Shown here: positions 6,802-33,754 of the stretch, piece after piece
How positions within the stretch are numbered: the stretch's first letter is position 1
Layout of the letters: each line of letters opens with the position of its first letter
IMG/VR virus record: IMGVR_UViG_3300047400_000075
Coordinates: 1-38,121 of that record
From: a virus
Taxonomy: Duplodnaviria; Caudoviricetes
Length of the DNA: 38,121 bases
Direction: 5' to 3' (one strand)
Program-made: the position numbers and the translations under genes
The notes under the pieces: model-generated
Database searches by the model: none
What the model was told of the DNA's origin: nothing
The model's input: only the letters and a program-made list of their open reading frames with translations

Positions 6802-6848
6802 AAAAGAAAAAGGCCGGCCCAAACGCAGATGCGTCTGGAACCGGCCTT
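6802..6848 (-). terminator. Intrinsic terminator-like hairpin in the scaffold leader
   Basis: Minus strand AAGGCCGG-ttccagacgcatctgcgtttggg-CCGGCCTT followed by a T tract. Confidence 0.7.
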
Positions 6849-6943
6849 GTGTTGGTGACCCGCTCGCGCGGGGCAACCGTCAGGCTATGAAGTTGTTCTG
6901 CGACCCGCGCCCGTAGCTGCGCGGAGTCTACACTACCGTGTCA

Positions 6944-6972
6944 AGGCTACGTGCGTTTCTGGGGCCTGTCAA
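6944..6972 (-). promoter_or_regulatory. Sigma70-like promoter for the scaffold/coat operon
   Basis: TTGACA-17 bp-TAGCCT on the minus strand. Confidence 0.55.
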
Positions 6973-15180: not shown

Positions 15181-15636
15181 CTACCACTCCCGCCGTCCGG
15201 CCCAGGTGTCATACACCGGTCGATTGAACGCCGCCAGCTCACGTTGATAGGCCAGCCATGCCTCGGATCCCTGCTCCACACCCACCCATCGACTGTGCCG
15301 CTGGACGGGATAGGTCGGCGTGGGTTGCGGGGGCGCTGGGCCACGGCGCTTGTCAGCGGCCAGGCGCCAGCCGCTCTTGCGTGTGCCATAGGCGGGATCA
15401 TTGCCGGCCCGCATGTTGCGAATGCGTTGCCGTTGCTTGGCGAGATGCACCGCGCATCGGGCCGCGCCATCCGTGTCCGCACGACATTCCACGCATCCTC
15501 CAGCACGACGCTTCCGACGACTTTTCGCCGCGTTCTCGGCCCGATGAACCGTGCAGCGTTCAAAGCCATCTGCCGGCTTACCACACACCACACACAGGCC
15601 CATCGCTCGGCGCTTTCTGACTGTGAACTCACTCAT
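15181..15636 (-). CDS. Basic protein with two tandem CxxC-x9-10-CxxH zinc-finger repeats (possible regulator)
   Basis: GLCVVCGK..RCTVH and GGCVECRA..RCAVH. Confidence 0.65.
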   Translation of the reverse strand: MSEFTVRKRRAMGLCVVCGKPADGFERCTVHRAENAAKSRRKRRAGGCVECRADTDGAARCAVHLAKQRQRIRNMRAGNDPAYGTRKSGWRLAADKRRGPAPPQPTPTYPVQRHSRWVGVEQGSEAWLAYQRELAAFNRPVYDTWAGRREW

Positions 15637-18887: not shown

Positions 18888-19200
18888 CGGCCTTCCCCGC
18901 TGGCACGCCATGCAGCGCGGTCCAGTCTTTCCACGACAGGATCACGAGGGCGTCGGTGTCCTTCTGGCCGGGTGTCTTCAGGACGAGAATCCCTGACTTC
19001 CCCTGCGTGGCTGCGGTGGCTTGAATGCCGCCCAACCAGTGCCAGAGCCAAGACGGCAACATCCGACGCACCTTGAGTTGGTAGGCCGCTATCGCGTCAG
19101 TGAAGTCGGCCCCGTGACGCTCGCCAGTGACGGGGATACGGTCCACGCCGACATCGCGGGCCATGCGGCGCTCGCAGGCTTTCCAGGCTTTGTCGCTCAT
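18874..19200 (-). CDS. PD-(D/E)XK nuclease, Holliday junction resolvase-like
   Basis: WKACERRMA..GAD..YQLKVR..LVILSWKDW. Confidence 0.7.
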   Translation of the reverse strand: MSDKAWKACERRMARDVGVDRIPVTGERHGADFTDAIAAYQLKVRRMLPSWLWHWLGGIQATAATQGKSGILVLKTPGQKDTDALVILSWKDWTALHGVPAGKADDRD

Positions 19201-19204
19201 CGGC

Positions 19205-19852
19205 CTACGCGCCTCCCTCGCTGCTCACGGCCAGTGAGGCGATGATGGCGTCTCGCTCGGCCTTGGTCACGATGTGTATCCCGCCGCGCTTGACTGGCGT
19301 GTCGTGGGCTGTCCAGTACATCCAGGCGCTCGTCACGCTGTCTGTGGATCCACTACCTCTATAGTCGGTCCGTGGGAGCACAATCACTTGTTGCGGTGGA
19401 TGCGCGGCTAACCATGCGCCACGCTCGTCTGTCGGCTCCAGAAACGACAGTCGCAGCAGCATCACCGCGCCCCAGATGCTCCACTTGTGCGCGTGCTTCA
19501 AAATCTCGAAAGCTTGATTGAAGGGCGGGTTCGTGATCGTCAGCGTCGGTTTCCCCTTCTGTCCACACACCCACGTCCACGAGTCACGCATGGTCGCATC
19601 GGCCAAGAACGTCGGCGCGAACGGTTCTCTGGCAACAATGTCCGACGTGAACCAGTGCAGCTTCGGCCGAACCCTCTGCATCGCTCTCACGATGGCCCCG
19701 TCTCCAACACAAGGCTCGTAGACCGAACACAGCTTCGGGATGTTGACGTAGCGCGCCATGGCTACCGTTTGCCACGCTGGCGTGACGTAAAAGTCATCCG
19801 AACGCCGAGCCTGCGGATCGCCAACGTCTTTGAGCACGCCGGACGTATTCAC
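19205..19852 (-). CDS. DNA adenine (amino) methyltransferase
   Basis: DFYVTP, motif I YEPCVGDG, catalytic TNPPF, LLRLSFLE; GTG 19852 coupled to the upstream stop. Confidence 0.85.
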   Translation of the reverse strand: MNTSGVLKDVGDPQARRSDDFYVTPAWQTVAMARYVNIPKLCSVYEPCVGDGAIVRAMQRVRPKLHWFTSDIVAREPFAPTFLADATMRDSWTWVCGQKGKPTLTITNPPFNQAFEILKHAHKWSIWGAVMLLRLSFLEPTDERGAWLAAHPPQQVIVLPRTDYRGSGSTDSVTSAWMYWTAHDTPVKRGGIHIVTKAERDAIIASLAVSSEGGA

Positions 19853-19962
19853 CGCTGCCACCGTGGATGCACCGGAAAGCCGTACTGCTTGAGCGCCTCC
19901 AATCGCGTGGTGGCAGAGGGGCCAGCCATCAGACGCCAGAGGATTGTGCGAAGCCAAGTCAT
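19849..19962 (-). CDS. 37-aa hypothetical protein
   Basis: Own translation MTWLRTILWRLMAGPSATTRLEALKQYGFPVHPRWQR; ATGA and GTGA overlaps. Confidence 0.45.
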   Translation of the reverse strand: MTWLRTILWRLMAGPSATTRLEALKQYGFPVHPRWQR

Positions 19963-20183
19963 GCGTCCTGCTCCTTGATCGCCTGTTCGATGCGTTCGGC
20001 GGCAGCGATGAGCTCGGCGGCGAGTTGACGTGCATTGGCCGCACCATCGCTATTCCATCCCGGCAGGTAAACCATGTCTGGCGCATCTTCGTGATCGATG
20101 CCTACGATATAGCCACGTTCGTAGGAATACTCAAGCACCACATCCACGACACCGAGCAAATCGAAACGCTGTACTTCTTTCAT
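19959..20183 (-). CDS. Hypothetical protein
   Basis: ATG 20183 with a GAGGGAGGGAG SD; ARQLAAELIAAA motif. Confidence 0.65.
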   Translation of the reverse strand: MKEVQRFDLLGVVDVVLEYSYERGYIVGIDHEDAPDMVYLPGWNSDGAANARQLAAELIAAAERIEQAIKEQDA

Positions 20184-20206
20184 CTCGCGCTCCCTCCCTC
20201 TGTGAA

Positions 20207-20344
20207 CTGTTGGCGGCGTGCAGCGCGGCATGCCATGAGGCGTTGACCGTGCCCCGTGTGCGACCTCGCAAGGTGCCTCTAGGTTGAACACCCCGTGACT
20301 TCAGGTGTTGGGCTCAACCGCACCCACGCCGACGCCGCCAACAG
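20207..20344 (-). ncRNA. Structured RNA unit C (3' unit of tandem array)
   Basis: Perfect 13-bp closing IR CTGTTGGCGGCGT/ACGCCGCCAACAG with nested stems GTGCG/CGCAC, GGTTGA/TCAACC, AACACC/GGTGTT, ACCT/AGGT. Confidence 0.6.
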
Positions 20345-20350
20345 ACTGAC

Positions 20351-20439
20351 TGGTGAGTGGGGCCGTTACCGAAAAACGGCGACTTGGGCACATCAGCCCG
20401 CTGTCCCGGCTCACTCGGCAAAGCCGCGCCCACTCACCA
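20351..20439 (-). ncRNA. tRNA-like cloverleaf RNA unit B ending in ACCA
   Basis: 11-bp closing IR; GAGTGGG/CCCACTC + A + CCA; three arms; non-canonical loops. Confidence 0.65.
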
Positions 20440-20445
20440 TCTCAA

Positions 20446-20586
20446 TTGCCGCGAGCGCACCATCGGATGCGCTGCGTGTCGTGGTGTTCTCTTCTACATA
20501 TGCTGCCGAGGTCATCGCATGATTCCTTTCGATGAATCAGCATCGCGTTCTGTAGCACCACTACACGCCCAGAACTGGCGCGGCAA
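20446..20586 (-). ncRNA. Structured RNA unit A (5' unit of tandem array)
   Basis: TTGCCGCG/CGCGGCAA closing stem; CCAG/CTGG; GCGTGT-GTGGTG-CTACA-ATGCTG nested long arm; AGCGCA/TGCGCT. Confidence 0.6.
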
Positions 20587-20588
20587 AC

Positions 20589-20921
20589 TTAAACAGTCGC
20601 CTTGAACTCCTCCGCACTCGCCCGCGCAAAGGCTTTGAGCGTGCGGCTCATCTCCAACACCAGCACCCGCGCATCCTTGGCCGTGCGATAGCGGGCGTAT
20701 TCCTCACTCGCCTGCGCTCTGACCTTGGCCCTATTAGCAGCTTCCTGACTGTCCAGCGCCGCATCGAGCACCTTGAGATAGGCCAGCTCCGCCTCCCGCT
20801 CCTCGACCATCACGTAGCCGAGTAGCGCGACGGCCTGATTGGATAGCTCGCTGGCCTTGAGCGGGGACAAGTCGCCGAGCATTTCCCTCTGCATGGCGGC
20901 GATGCGATCACGGACGGTCAC
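20589..20921 (-). CDS. Helical protein, possibly a UvsY-like recombination mediator
   Basis: AANRAKVRAQASEEY coiled-coil pattern; early-region context. Confidence 0.5.
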   Translation of the reverse strand: MTVRDRIAAMQREMLGDLSPLKASELSNQAVALLGYVMVEEREAELAYLKVLDAALDSQEAANRAKVRAQASEEYARYRTAKDARVLVLEMSRTLKAFARASAEEFKATV

Positions 20922-21220
20922 ACCAGAGCCCTCCACAACGTGACCGTCCGCCCATAGGGCGACAGGCCGTGTTCATCCGTGCGGGCCTCGATGAGATTGG
21001 CCCGCAGTAACCCATTCCGCACGCTGCACACCGTGGACATCGGCCAGCCGGTCAAACGCACGATGTCGTGATCCGTGAGTCCGCGCGGCGCCGTGCGTAG
21101 CAGACAGAGCAGCGACGTCGTCTTCGTCAGGCGCGTCTCTCGTGCCGCCTCCGCAGCCTTGGCTGAGTGGTGGCGACTGATCGGCGTGGAGCCTGAGAAC
21201 GGCAGCGAGGCTGGTGTCAT
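20918..21220 (-). CDS. Winged-helix DNA-binding protein
   Basis: RGLTDHDIVRLTGWPMSTVCSVRNGLLRANLIE..GRTVTLW. Confidence 0.7.
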   Translation of the reverse strand: MTPASLPFSGSTPISRHHSAKAAEAARETRLTKTTSLLCLLRTAPRGLTDHDIVRLTGWPMSTVCSVRNGLLRANLIEARTDEHGLSPYGRTVTLWRALV

Positions 21221-21489
21221 GCCTCTTCTCGCGCCTGCCTCGTGATGGCGGCGATCTCGTGCTCAACGGCTTGCCGGATGGCCGTCTCTAGGATTGGCCG
21301 CCACCGCTCGTCACGGTCGGTCGGCCACTGTTCGCAGATAGCGTCGGCTATCGCTTCACAGGCCGACGCGATGATGGACTCCTGCCGAAGTTCTTCAAAT
21401 CGTTCTGTGCTGCCGTCGATGGCAACCACCTCGGCGTCGATCTTGGCGTTTTGTTCAGCAATCGCCCTGTCCAGGCTGACCACCTTCAT
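21217..21489 (-). CDS. Hypothetical protein
   Basis: GGAGG SD; coupled to neighbours. Confidence 0.55.
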   Translation of the reverse strand: MKVVSLDRAIAEQNAKIDAEVVAIDGSTERFEELRQESIIASACEAIADAICEQWPTDRDERWRPILETAIRQAVEHEIAAITRQAREEA

Positions 21490-23996: not shown

Positions 23997-24827
23997 CTAG
24001 GTGAGTGCTGGCTGCTTAACCCACTGAGCCCGAACGCGGCCACCAGGGAATGCGCTCTGCTCGTTAACTGAGCCGTCCTCGGCGTGTCCTCTGGTGATCG
24101 GATAGTCCACTGAGACGCGGCCAGAGGCGTACAGATTCACGCTGTTGACGGCGACGTAATGCACATCCCAGTACGTGACCGTCAACGGGCCCCACTTGTA
24201 GACTGGCATTCCGAACAGTTCATTGTCTGGCAACCAGGCACTCAGGGGGTTGCCTTGGTGCGGCTGTCCGTACGGCTCTCGAAGATTCACCTTGCGCGGC
24301 CCGTACGCGCAAAGCTTATCGAGCGTCCGTGGAACGTCTGCCCTGTTCTCTGGGCCGAGAACCACGTAGATCGCTATCTCGCGCGGATCGTGAAGGATGT
24401 CGGACAGGTCGGCTGGCGGGCCTCCCATCATCGACGCATTGATCACAGGGTCCAGCGAGCACACCGTGACGCTGGCCTTGTCATAGGCCAGCCATCTGTC
24501 GCGGTGATTGGGGATCGCGATTCCGTTCGTCCTGACACCCACTGGCACGCCCAGTTCACGGAGACGCCCAACCAACGCCTCAGTATGTCGATAGAGCAAG
24601 TGGTCCGTGTTCGTGCCGCTGACCCACACGTCTGACACGCGCCGTTCTCGGCACTGGCGCATGAACTCGTCAAGCCCTTCCAGCGGCCACGTGTCGCGCG
24701 TGTCGAATCCGTCTAGGGCCATCATGTGCTGGCCGATACAGAAATAGCAGGCGCGGTTACACGGCCCGGAGAGATGCACGTTGCCGAACCAGTGATCGAA
24801 TGCTGGCGACGAATTCAGGCAGCCCAT
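23997..24827 (-). CDS. Radical SAM enzyme
   Basis: CNRACYFC (CxxxCxxC), VSGTNTD, VRTNG, SLDP. Confidence 0.88.
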   Translation of the reverse strand: MGCLNSSPAFDHWFGNVHLSGPCNRACYFCIGQHMMALDGFDTRDTWPLEGLDEFMRQCRERRVSDVWVSGTNTDHLLYRHTEALVGRLRELGVPVGVRTNGIAIPNHRDRWLAYDKASVTVCSLDPVINASMMGGPPADLSDILHDPREIAIYVVLGPENRADVPRTLDKLCAYGPRKVNLREPYGQPHQGNPLSAWLPDNELFGMPVYKWGPLTVTYWDVHYVAVNSVNLYASGRVSVDYPITRGHAEDGSVNEQSAFPGGRVRAQWVKQPALT

Positions 24828-31147: not shown

Positions 31148-33754
31148 CTATCGCTCAGTGTCATCAGTCTGCCCAGCCATCACTGGAATCCCTACCGGCA
31201 TGGCGCCACCCGACCTTGCGCCCGCGATGGCCGCCGCCACGCCCGCGCGCTGCGCCAGTGCGGTTCGTGCCGCCGCCGAGGCCGGCGCCTTCTGCCTCAA
31301 CATGGCCGTCAGGAACCGCACGCCACCGGGCGAATAGAGCAGCTTCCCGACCGGGGCGACCATCGCCTGCGTGATCAGATTCGTGCCCAATGTCGTGGCG
31401 GTGCCGGATGGGTTCGGGTTCTCCGAAACGCGCTTCATGAGCAGAAAGAAGTCGCCGAGGTCTTTCCGTAGATTCGGGTCGGGAAACAAGATCGCCTTGG
31501 TGGCATCGCTCATCTTGTTCCATCCCGCCGAGGCTTTCTGGGCGTGCAAGAGCTTGCCGTCCTCAAACGCGGTTTCGACTAGGTTTGACACCACGGCGCG
31601 CCCAATGTTGGGTATCTGATCGGGCGTCTGCCGGCGCACTTCGATCAGATTGCTCAAGCCCTTATTGCCCGGTCGCGTGACGGACTCGAAGACGGTCTGT
31701 GGGTTATCCGACAACAGATCTAGCGTGGCGGCTTTCTGATACTTCAGGGCTGTGGCGGCTCGCCCCTCTTTGAGCGCATCGAGGACGCCGCCGCGTTCGG
31801 CCGCAGCCGTCACCTGCCGATCCAACGCGCTGACTGCTCTCGCATACCCACCCTGCGCCTTGGTTCGCAATTCAGGAATGTCCGCCCGTGCGGCGTCTTT
31901 GAGGTCAGAGAGCACGCTATCGACATCGGACAAGCGCGCCACATCTGGCCCTTGCATGATCTTGTCCAGCGCCACCAGCAGCCGACCCCGCCCGCCCATG
32001 AGCGGCGTTAGTGCGGCTTCCCGCTTCAATGACTGATACAAAGGCGCCAGATCAGAACGTGCTTCAGTTAATCGAACTGCGCTTGGAACTTGCCGCAATG
32101 ACGGCTGCGGCTCCGTCGTCGCCCGCGTGGCTTCTCGCACGTCACCGGACCACCACTTCGTCCCAGGCCCCGCGCCTACCGCCTCAAGCGACTGTGCCAA
32201 ATCTTCGCCGCTTGTATTGCCCTTCCATGTCGCGGCGGTTTCAATGGCATCCGCCAAGTCTGACGGGCCGCTGATATGCCGGAACTCTGGATACGATTCA
32301 CGTAACCGCTCCGCCATCGACTCAAGCGAATGCCCACGGTCAGGGAAGACCACGCCACGCACACCATTGAGGCCACCCGTGGCACGTTTCGTCGTGGCAC
32401 CGCGCAACCCGGTTTCTTGTGATTGCCGACCCTTGACGACCGTTCGATCTTGCCCCTCCAGCCATCTCCGGATCTCGCCTTTTAGGCCCGTTTCTTTCGC
32501 AAGACTGATCCCGCCCTCGTCGGCAACGGCTTCCAAAATGCTGCGCGGGTTATAGTCTCCGCGCATCGACGCCATTTCCTCACGTAGGCCATTAGCCGTG
32601 GCGATCTTCTCGGCCGCTAATGGCTGAAATTCTCGAAATGTGCCCCCATATCCCTGAGATACCGCATCATCGTAAAGCACGCGCGCCACCGCGTCAGACG
32701 ATGGACGTTCACCCAACGCCGACAAGCGATCAATGGTCGCCGATGGCTCGACGGTTCTCGAGCGGACGATCGGCGCATTGGCGATCTGTGCGTCTTCCGC
32801 TGCGCGCACCTTGCTATAGGCTGCGTCCGACTCGGAATTGAGGTCGCGAATCTGCTTCGTGAGCACATCACGAATACCAGCGCCCACGTCGTAGCCAGTT
32901 TCCGTGCCTTGCACGTTCGGCGCGACCTGCTTGGCGAGCTTCTGGCCCGTCGCGCTCAACGCTTCAGCCTGCTTCTGGATCAAGGCTTCGGCTTGGCCCT
33001 CGGCGCCGAGACTGTTCGCCGCCCGCTTTTGGACATTCCGTAGATACCGGCTACCCGTGGCCGTCGCCGCATCGAGCGGCACGCCTTCACGCTCGGCAAA
33101 GGCATTGGAGGCCTGCTCGGCTGGCGTCAAGCGCGACGGGCGCGTCTGCGGCTTCGGCGTGCGCGGCGTGGCGGCTGAGATGACTCCGAGCGATCCTCCT
33201 GCTATCTCGCCCAACCCGCCAGCGACATCGCCATTCAGCACGCGCGATCCGCCATGCGTCACCATCGCGGCACTCGTCGTGCCCTGGACGGCCCGCTGGA
33301 GCGCCTGCACCTTCGGCAAAGCGAGCAGCCCCTTAAGTGCCGGCACCTCTTTGACAATGGCGCTGTCCGGCGTCAGCCCTGACAACGTGAGCGCGATACC
33401 AACGGGAGAGGTCATCGACTCGACGATGTTGCCGCCGCCCTCGACCATCCCCGCCACGGCACCACGCACCGTCTCGGTCGGATGCTGCCAGAGATTCCGC
33501 GCCACGTCCGACAGCGTGGACCATTCCAAGATCGATTGCTTGGTATTGCGGTCGGCGGTGTCGAGATGATTCGCAATGGCCCGCGCCGCCTGCCCCACAA
33601 TGGGAAGCAGGGGCGTATTGGCGGTATCCCATGCGCGACCGACGCGCGACTGCTGTGGCTGTGCTGGCGTCGGCTCTGCGACAGGCGTCCAGCCAGCCGC
33701 CGCTTCTGGCACGACCGTCCATCCAGGCGCCGGCATTATGGCTCCATCTTCCAT
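31148..33754 (-). CDS. Large DNA ejection/internal virion protein (gp16-like)
   Basis: 868 aa Ala-rich helical protein, NPNPSGTA motif, last of the ejection genes. Confidence 0.7.
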   Translation of the reverse strand: MEDGAIMPAPGWTVVPEAAAGWTPVAEPTPAQPQQSRVGRAWDTANTPLLPIVGQAARAIANHLDTADRNTKQSILEWSTLSDVARNLWQHPTETVRGAVAGMVEGGGNIVESMTSPVGIALTLSGLTPDSAIVKEVPALKGLLALPKVQALQRAVQGTTSAAMVTHGGSRVLNGDVAGGLGEIAGGSLGVISAATPRTPKPQTRPSRLTPAEQASNAFAEREGVPLDAATATGSRYLRNVQKRAANSLGAEGQAEALIQKQAEALSATGQKLAKQVAPNVQGTETGYDVGAGIRDVLTKQIRDLNSESDAAYSKVRAAEDAQIANAPIVRSRTVEPSATIDRLSALGERPSSDAVARVLYDDAVSQGYGGTFREFQPLAAEKIATANGLREEMASMRGDYNPRSILEAVADEGGISLAKETGLKGEIRRWLEGQDRTVVKGRQSQETGLRGATTKRATGGLNGVRGVVFPDRGHSLESMAERLRESYPEFRHISGPSDLADAIETAATWKGNTSGEDLAQSLEAVGAGPGTKWWSGDVREATRATTEPQPSLRQVPSAVRLTEARSDLAPLYQSLKREAALTPLMGGRGRLLVALDKIMQGPDVARLSDVDSVLSDLKDAARADIPELRTKAQGGYARAVSALDRQVTAAAERGGVLDALKEGRAATALKYQKAATLDLLSDNPQTVFESVTRPGNKGLSNLIEVRRQTPDQIPNIGRAVVSNLVETAFEDGKLLHAQKASAGWNKMSDATKAILFPDPNLRKDLGDFFLLMKRVSENPNPSGTATTLGTNLITQAMVAPVGKLLYSPGGVRFLTAMLRQKAPASAAARTALAQRAGVAAAIAGARSGGAMPVGIPVMAGQTDDTER

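Follow-up and report, generated by a model that had tools for sequence, protein, structure and literature searches.

We report three separately closed, non-coding folded units, shown to be structured well beyond chance, which occupy a gap in the early operon of an uncultured freshwater phage. The phage is represented by a complete IMG/VR virus record of 38,121 bp (GC 62.7%), and we refer to this whole stretch of DNA as the window. The element formed by the three units is real, modular, strongly structured and non-coding; it is not tRNA-like, and it belongs to no described family. It is one case of a sporadic, lineage-specific architecture, which we found in 3 of 27 phages carrying a member of the family of the upstream gene, each time with a sequence of its own.

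The structural genes of the window include those for a P22-like portal, a large terminase, a major head protein and a scaffold, and its early/replication block encodes an exonuclease, a DNA methyltransferase, an HNH nuclease, a replication-initiation protein and a DnaB helicase. A scan of 59 ORFs against PHROGs, extended to Pfam for 20 of them, detected neither an integrase nor a reverse transcriptase. According to a crude GC3-based gene call, the minus strand carries 53 of 58 ORFs, most of them abutting or overlapping. Phage early operons usually leave little room between genes; in this one, a non-coding gap of 405 nt (20184-20588), about 1% of a tightly packed genome, extends from the stop of a 110/115-aa ORF to the ATG of a 74-aa ORF. 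The initiator and DnaB genes are located 1.8 kb downstream of the gap, and the genes between include the methyltransferase. The nearest isolates (VvAW1 and the Manatee Spring contigs) show identities of only ~33% (portal) to 50% (N-domain of the initiator), and are not syntenic with the window. We named the units M1, M2 and M3 in 5' to 3' order on the minus (sense) strand; they correspond, respectively, to units A, B and C of an earlier description made from the letters of the DNA alone (hereafter, the sequence-only reading). The features of the region are the following:

20589..20936, minus strand: upstream gene, a 115-aa ORF, likely 110 aa from GTG 20918; all-helical, from a phage family of unknown function
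20589-20591, minus strand: stop codon of the upstream ORF, read from the sequence
20446..20586, minus strand: M1, a four-way junction with a closing helix of 7-8 bp
20440..20445, minus strand: spacer 1, 6 nt, pairing with spacer 2
20351..20439, minus strand: M2, a perfect 11-bp closing helix and a rod
20345..20350, minus strand: spacer 2, 6 nt, pairing with spacer 1
20207..20344, minus strand: M3, a perfect 13-bp closing helix and a branched rod
19959..20206, minus strand: ribosome site GGGAGGGAG and 74-aa ORF (ATG at 20183), an orphan
19849-19962, minus strand: 37-aa ORF, with an ATGA overlap with the 74-aa ORF
19205 to GTG 19852, minus strand: DNA methyltransferase (phrog_799, E 6.8e-26), with a GTGA overlap with the 37-aa ORF

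The units tile 380 nt (20207-20586) of the gap. The sequence-only reading had described abutting units with 6-nt spacers, each closed by a perfect inverted repeat, beginning 2 nt after a stop codon and ending just before a ribosome site, and our analysis agrees with it on all these points. The three repeats are present (8 bp in M1, 11 bp in M2 and 13 bp in M3), M1 begins 2 nt past the upstream stop, and M3 ends 8 nt ahead of the ribosome site. Spaced perfect inverted repeats of at least 11 bp within 200 nt occur only three times in the whole window, and two of these are in the gap. The units are also closed independently of each other: the ensemble has 141 expected pairs, of which only 3.9 join different units or flanks, and part of these form a helix between spacer 1 and spacer 2 (20446-20442 / 20349-20345; 5 bp, mean P 0.85) that lengthens the closing stem of M2. 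The gap had also been presented as the largest one free of genes; this holds within the train of minus-strand genes, but the crude gene caller also left empty the segment 718-1171 (454 nt), which is unstructured.

The closing helix of M1 (20585-20579 / 20453-20447, 7-8 bp) leads to three arms: a 3-bp hairpin, a long arm of 6+6+5+2+6+6 bp, and an 8-bp hairpin (-63.6 kcal/mol; helix probabilities 0.72-1.00). The best fold of M2 (-50.2 kcal/mol) consists of the 11-bp closing helix (P 0.99) and then a rod of ~34 pairs, with a three-hairpin fold as the alternative. In M3 (-75.4 kcal/mol; P 0.95-1.00 in the lower stem) the 13-bp closing helix continues past single-base bulges with 8 and 4 bp, resulting in a near-continuous duplex of ~25 bp from which two branches depart. 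All three units had been called cloverleaf-like; the term is a loose one for a four-way junction (M1), a rod (the best fold of M2) and a branched rod (M3). Unit lengths range from 89 to 141 nt, and the positional entropy of the folds from 0.29 to 0.57. The region of the ribosome site (20184-20206) is mostly unpaired (mean unpaired probability 0.65). The units have no sequence in common, with 17 of 148 columns invariant in the three-unit alignment, and they are neither paralogues nor the products of a tandem duplication. A CRISPR array was rejected, as it had been in the sequence-only reading, for no repeat family covers the units. The whole array is single copy in the window.

We assessed the folding by comparing the fold energy with that of dinucleotide shuffles (z-score). 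The 405-nt gap reaches -194.5 kcal/mol on the minus strand (z -4.5) and -180.1 kcal/mol on the plus strand (z -4.9), and the 380 nt of the array have z-scores of -6.9 (minus) and -6.1 (plus). Taken singly, M1, M2 and M3 score -4.35, -4.42 and -4.67, respectively, on the minus strand, and -4.46, -4.87 and -3.29 on the plus strand. The minus-strand value of the array is far beyond the controls: 26 evenly spaced 380-nt windows from the same genome have a mean z of -0.45 (sd 1.13, minimum -2.56). Among the other ORF-free gaps (n=14), only 6804-6946 approaches the array (z -4.1), and it has a classic intrinsic terminator. It is therefore very improbable that the array is functionless chance structure in a GC-rich spacer: GC-rich sequence does fold readily, and no conservation is demonstrable for the gap, but against this stand the distance of its z from the genome background, the two thirds of the window's long spaced perfect inverted repeats that fall in the gap, and the three independent units, each with a z of about -4.4.

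The gap encodes no protein. GC3 in its six frames is 0.59-0.64, versus 0.78-0.88 in seven of the eight reference genes, which indicates no periodicity, and every frame is interrupted by two or more stops. The gap does contain small ORFs, of 34-39 aa on the minus strand and of 60-82 aa on the plus, but they were rejected as genes for want of a coding signal. We found no match at gathering threshold in Rfam 15, including tRNA, tmRNA, C4, GOLLD, ROOL, HEARO, riboswitches and ribozymes; at E<=10, the only hits were LPR10 (E 6, outside the gap) and mir-491 (E 8.4). On both points, the absence of a protein and of a described family, the sequence-only reading was right. A narrow literature search found no description of such module arrays. 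Neither a sigma-70-like promoter nor a minus-strand terminator was detected in the gap. Two other candidates were discarded: a retron msr-msd, since no reverse transcriptase is adjacent (same ORF scan as above), and a CsrA sponge, since by eye only one or two GGA motifs occur in loops.

The sequence-only reading had proposed a polycistronic precursor of three tRNA-like RNAs, freed by RNase P and RNase Z. The abutting closed units and the short spacers do recall tRNA clusters. RNase P recognition, however, uses a free (single-stranded) 3' NCCA tail, and the end motifs on which the proposal relied turned out to be buried: the ACCA of M2 exists but is within the 11-bp closing helix, leaving no free tail; the GCAA of M1 exists but is paired; and M3, which had been assigned an NCCA end, ends in ACAG, also paired. 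ARAGORN predicted no tRNA or tmRNA in the window, and none in the gap at the default and 85% thresholds; at the 70% threshold it gave four hits in the gap, which are meaningless and do not coincide with the units. The lengths of the units, their closing stems of 8-13 bp, and the lack of any tRNA, tmRNA or C4 match in Rfam even at E<=10 also argue against this model, which we consider highly unlikely.

Searches for relatives of the gap itself were unproductive. Using blastn against GenBank phages and PLSDB plasmids, we obtained no match at 1e-5, and at E<=10 only chance pieces of 25-52 nt. Locus searches with the 115-aa and 74-aa proteins gave no match in viral, metagenome and genome collections, nor did the one with the exonuclease; the methyltransferase gave only a 25% match (L002), and DnaB one identical 17-kb contig (L003), which ends before the gap. 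By word-index search among 5.8 billion proteins, the 74-aa protein matched only its own cluster; the same kind of search gave only a 95% cluster for the 115-aa protein. At close range, the two genes on either side of the gap are near-orphans. A comparison of the gap with the whole records of five relatives returned nothing beyond a 17-nt match (E 0.004), which falls where an ORF ends and which we take as chance. No homologue of the gap was reached.

The upstream gene proved more informative. A full HMMER search placed the 110-aa protein in a family of ~112-aa proteins with 173 representative clusters at E<=1e-3 (36 at E<=1e-10). The family has no name in Pfam, PHROG or PDB, and the Pfam and PDB family searches returned only chance-level rows. 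AlphaFold2, run with 50 members, produced a confident four-helix model (pLDDT 97.3). The best PDB fold match of the model is T4 UvsY, with weak scores (E 0.19, TM 0.55), and the nearest named Atlas cluster carries the UvsY annotation on 11% of its members (score 0.86). The model thus offers a weak lead that the upstream protein may be UvsY-like.

Scanning IMG/VR with an alignment of the family (the first one was too diverse for locus search, and a smaller one was used), we collected 26 loci with the family gene, two of which (L020 and L021) look identical. In 24 of the 26, the start of a same-strand ORF (mechanical ORFs, 45 codons or longer) falls within a span reaching from 60 nt ahead of the family gene's stop to 30 nt past it, with a 4-nt overlap in 9 of the 24. 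Since these 24 loci have an abutting ORF and no such element, the element is dispensable for the context of the family gene. The two exceptions are L029, which has an AT-rich, unstructured gap of 150 nt (z +0.5), and L026, in which 419 non-coding nt separate the family gene from a replication initiator. The L026 initiator starts with MARIRTIKPQFF, and that of the window reads MARIRTIKPNFF from its eighth residue. The first ~220 nt of the L026 gap form two stem-closed multi-arm modules and a hairpin (z -5.41 on the sense strand, -4.12 on the antisense), with 11 G-U pairs in the sense strand versus 1 in the antisense, and -106.2 versus -82.3 kcal/mol.

A scan of 43 gaps of at least 110 nt in 23 GC-rich loci (the three low-GC loci were skipped, and the L026 gap was missed owing to a spurious ORF) revealed a further outlier, L023 3783-4046, with a z of -7.5 by script and -5.25 by tool on both strands. 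It also consists of two abutting stem-closed modules and a hairpin, with 10 G-U pairs in the sense strand versus 7, and -133.0 versus -110.3 kcal/mol. The L023 array is located directly upstream of the gene for a 270-aa protein that, in its C-terminal part, has 36% identity with the L026 initiator. L031 (z -3.3 to -3.5) is less convincing. No sequence is common to the gaps of the window, L026 and L023, and none of the three has an Rfam match. By their family protein, L026 and L023 are close kin (79%), yet their modules differ. Relatives with 74-85% protein identity (L007, L013, L030, L035 and L037) lack the L026 modules, and their similarity to L026 stops at the end of the family gene. The L026 modules are single copy in their own 42-kb record, and absent from the whole records of four relatives. 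The recurrence of the architecture in two distant relatives, with unrelated sequence, suggests a fast-changing RNA device, invisible to family searches based on sequence.

Whether the structure acts as RNA or as DNA can be approached through the two strands. Over the 380 nt, the sense strand folds 16 kcal/mol better than the plus strand; this edge is largely compositional, as the shuffle means differ by 12.5 kcal/mol in the same direction. The sense strand of the 405-nt gap is G-rich (A81 C112 G139 U73; GC 0.62). The minus strand has 12 G-U pairs and no A-C single mismatch, versus 8 G-U pairs and one C-A in the plus strand; the bias that the sequence-only reading had noted has the right direction, but it is slight. 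The helices are mostly Watson-Crick, and DNA folding parameters give a z of -6.06. The data tilt slightly to a sense-strand RNA, and are compatible with a DNA-level element; with both strands and DNA parameters equally extreme, action at the RNA level is tentative. The stretch, or part of it, is present in 11 public runs from five studies. Four of these are metatranscriptome runs (from one study) with contigs identical to the window, one of 34.6 kb, but they cover almost the whole phage evenly, without variants or ends, and so are no evidence of transcription or processing. Contig breaks were seen in run X8 (20188-20194) and in run X10, and are uninformative.

The explanation that we favour, and hold tentatively, is that the units act in cis, as RNA modules occupying a variable slot of the early/replication operon, and are co-transcribed with the operon and cut by RNase III. 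Co-transcription is the simplest reading, since the genes are nearly all on the minus strand, the gap has no promoter or terminator, and the ribosome site is mostly open. The modules would be made as part of the minus-strand early messenger, and each would fold as an insulated domain, so that the 380-nt untranslated stretch would stay compact. The host RNase III would then cut the long closing helices, chiefly the lower stems of M3 and M2. The cut would leave a stem at the end of the upstream message (the 110-aa gene) and another at the beginning of the downstream one (74 aa, 37 aa and methyltransferase). In the manner of the RNase III signals of the T7 early precursor, cleavage would uncouple the messages on either side and protect their ends, and it could free as many as three compact RNAs of 90-140 nt. 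Measured against the idealized E. coli substrate (~22 bp), two of the predicted folds have near-continuous duplex of sufficient length, namely M3 (13+8+4 bp) and M2 (5+11 bp, then the rod). The like architecture in the same operon in 2 of the 26 loci, both directly before a gene of the replication-initiator type, also counts for the cis-acting reading; the closing helix of M1, of only 7-8 bp, counts against cleavage by RNase III.

The RNase III signals of T7 are single hairpins of ~60 nt. To our knowledge, this is the form that such signals take in phage early operons, rather than 380 nt of multi-arm modules, which is a point against the favoured explanation. The T7 polycistronic early mRNA precursor is cut by RNase III at five signals, and the idealized E. 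coli substrate is 22 bp (PMC3867540). The likeness of the window to these signals, and to the leader-trailer stalks of rRNA, is in the untranslated structured elements between early cistrons (T7), in the ~two helical turns (M3 and M2) and in the open ribosome sites beside them (PMC3867540). The window differs in that three multi-arm modules, including a four-way junction, cover 380 nt, and in that cleavage is here predicted. By this analogy, the element of the window would work most like intercistronic RNase III signals, though larger, multi-arm and tiled.

A possible but doubtful alternative is that the units are excised as stable small RNAs acting in trans, off the operon, for example in phage-host conflict, where they could be decoys or regulators. 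Such a role would account for sequences that are peculiar to each lineage, and the lack of common sequence among the window, L026 and L023 fits fast-evolving conflict elements. Compact, self-closed folds with a positional entropy such as that of the units are typical of stable RNAs, and the phage spends 1% of a tightly packed genome on them. There is also a parallel in the crAss-like phage phi14:2, whose early genes are separated by long non-coding stretches; sense-direction transcription of these yields abundant, stable RNAs of no known function (10.1101/2020.03.07.982082); abundance and stability were shown there, whereas the gap of the window is known from its sequence. Against a role in trans, the modules lack a promoter or terminator of their own, no conservation is demonstrable, and their loops (with the exception of the 12-nt M1 loop, left out by the script) pair with the phage's 60 translation starts no better than shuffled loops do (best -18.2 vs -17.4 +/- 1.4 kcal/mol).

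Other small phage RNAs are cut from longer transcripts, among them the C4 antisense RNA of P1/P7, processed by RNase P, and the stable RNAs of the T4 tRNA cluster. The units resemble these as small structured phage RNAs cut from a longer early transcript, which for the window is proposed, but differ in having no Rfam match or tRNA-like features. A second comparison is with GOLLD, ROOL, HEARO, OLE and raiA, described as large, ornate, multi-domain and highly structured RNAs of lake metagenomes and phages, some of them phage-borne (PMC12286853, PMC2864571). The array is likewise large, multi-domain, highly structured and non-coding; it differs in having no Rfam hit, and its domains are fully independent instead of forming one interlocked fold. 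If the modules are processed RNAs, they would constitute an added class of phage non-coding elements, as well as compact natural folding insulators.

We assign a similarly low probability to a DNA-level element, in which the units would be palindromes inserted into a hypervariable slot, whether selfish or MITE-like elements, recombination scars or hot spots, and the RNA fold would be a by-product. That the helices are nearly all Watson-Crick, and that both strands and DNA parameters give similar z-scores, is in agreement with this, as is the high variability of the slot after the family gene, which holds small ORFs, HNH genes or modules in different relatives. A weak hint comes from two DNA runs of two studies (X2 and X6), in which the assembly graph branches at the single 31-mer 20335-20365, with other sequence on both sides. 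This 31-mer, unique in the window, spans the end of the M3 closing stem, the spacer and the start of the M2 closing stem; it is absent from the three public collections searched (viral, metagenome and genome), which counts against the DNA-level reading. A CRISPR repeat-spacer-repeat arrangement was rejected for the 31-mer, as its two foreign flanks differ. In run X11, a diverged relative of the phage (80-95% identity, low depth) has a joint from 19908 to 20447 that skips the 74-aa ORF, M3 and M2, resuming at the first base of the M1 closing helix; with one contig, a side of 35 and 80% likeness, the joint is a weak hint for inserts.

Several observations do not fit palindromic inserts well. Unlike MITE/REP-like palindromic repeats, the array of the window occurs in one copy in its record, with no target-site duplication flanking the units by eye, and the L026 array, as described above, is equally single copy, with no counterpart in four relatives' records. 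Simple palindromic inserts would not give multi-arm junctions with local hairpins, and the sense strand is favoured by the G-U pairs, with a clear excess in L026. Small structured non-coding cassettes in variable slots are also found in T4-type phages, as PeSL cassettes; these occur in hyperplastic regions, together with modular shuffling of accessory genes, and their repeated motifs are a strong sigma-70-like promoter and a terminator stem-loop (PMC2839356). The gap of the window, by contrast, has no promoter, terminator or repeat within the genome. If the modules were DNA-level inserts, they would mark a recombination hot spot shaping phage mosaicism.

Some elements of these explanations may be combined. 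The gaps of the window, L026 and L023 could represent an undescribed class: arrays of self-closing multi-arm RNA cassettes in a hypervariable slot ahead of phage replication genes, with sequences particular to each lineage, freed as stable small RNAs for phage-host conflict (e.g., as decoys for RNA-sensing or RNA-cutting defences), and with closing stems that double as recombination joints for cassette swaps. We regard this broader proposal as speculative and, in its entirety, unlikely.

A replication origin or replication-control region, as structured DNA or as a transcript, seems improbable. The L026 and L023 arrays are directly upstream of a gene of the replication-initiator type. In the window, 1.8 kb separate the gap from the initiator and DnaB genes downstream, and the methyltransferase that lies between is absent in a natural variant, P0007. 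T4 has a replication origin at uvsY, and the upstream gene is weakly UvsY-like in its modelled fold. On the other side, the gap has no iterons, only short weak direct repeats, and no AT-rich unwinding stretch (GC 0.62); the initiator gene is not adjacent in the window, and 24 of the 26 relatives have no such region at the slot after the family gene.

In P0007, the variant without methyltransferase, the 74-aa protein is fused to the C-terminus of the methyltransferase. This fusion, the branching of X2 and X6, and the joints of X11 indicate that the neighbourhood of the gap is plastic. A second joint in the X11 relative, from 19167 to 21252, has 20 other letters in between and a depth of 2; it is a weak hint, and would delete the block from the methyltransferase to a helix-turn-helix gene.

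The protein encoded directly upstream of the non-coding gap defines a phage protein family (alignment A2) that comprises at least 173 clusters.

20589-20918, minus strand: gene of the 110-aa protein.

A confident four-helix model was obtained for the family, and this fold, together with language-model leads, weakly suggests a link to UvsY, the recombination mediator of T4. In two other IMG/VR loci with the family gene, L026 and L023, a RecE-like exonuclease and an HNH gene precede it, and both loci have a gap containing stem-closed modules.

L026, 2834-3252: non-coding gap of 419 nt that separates the family gene from a gene for a replication initiator.
L023, 3783-4046: gap of 264 nt immediately preceding an initiator-like gene of 270 aa.

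The first ~220 nt of the L026 gap hold two stem-closed multi-arm modules and a hairpin (z -5.4, the folding score against dinucleotide shuffles), with G-U pairs favouring the sense strand over the antisense (11 versus 1); among its relatives, this array was seen only in the L026 record itself. The L023 gap contains a hairpin and two abutting stem-closed modules (z -5.3 to -7.5), whose sequence is unrelated to the modules of L026 or of the window.

Public DNA runs gave weak hints of variation around the modules. In two runs from two studies (X2 and X6), the assembly graph forks at exactly the 31-mer 20335-20365, with foreign sequence attached on both sides; this 31-mer was not found in viral, metagenome or genome collections. 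In a third run (X11), a diverged relative at 80-95% identity has two joints, both weak and of low depth. At the first (19908/20447), the 74-aa ORF and the units M3 and M2 appear to be skipped, the match picking up again at the first paired base of the unit M1; at the second (19167/21252), 20 letters seem to stand in place of the whole stretch that runs from the methyltransferase to the HTH gene.

Downstream of the gap, the 74-aa ORF (19959-20183) is followed by two overlapping genes.

19849-19962, minus strand: 37-aa ORF with a good ribosome site, in ATGA overlap with the stop of the 74-aa ORF.
19205-19852, minus strand: DNA methyltransferase, with a probable GTG start at 19852 in a GTGA overlap.

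This GTG is most likely the start of the methyltransferase, rather than the ATG at 20086 of the long ORF. Within the cluster of the 74-aa ORF, P0007, encoded on a 7-kb contig, is a variant of 87 aa in which the last residues of the methyltransferase are joined to the 74-aa protein; it is a natural loss of the methyltransferase gene by deletion between two short similar stretches.

Elsewhere in the window we recorded other structured sites and one further ORF.

6804-6946, minus strand: 143-nt gap with an intrinsic terminator, upstream of the genes for the scaffold and the major head protein (z -4.1).
15435-15566: long imperfect inverted repeat (30 nt, 73%, arms 72 nt apart).
32945-33141: long imperfect inverted repeat (18 nt, 89%, arms 161 nt apart), within an 868-aa ORF.
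23997-24827, minus strand: ORF of 276 aa whose radical-SAM match is weak (E 1.4e-5) and falls short of the Pfam cut-off.

The terminator is of the classic intrinsic type, a GC-rich hairpin of 9+8 bp followed by UUUUUCUUUU.
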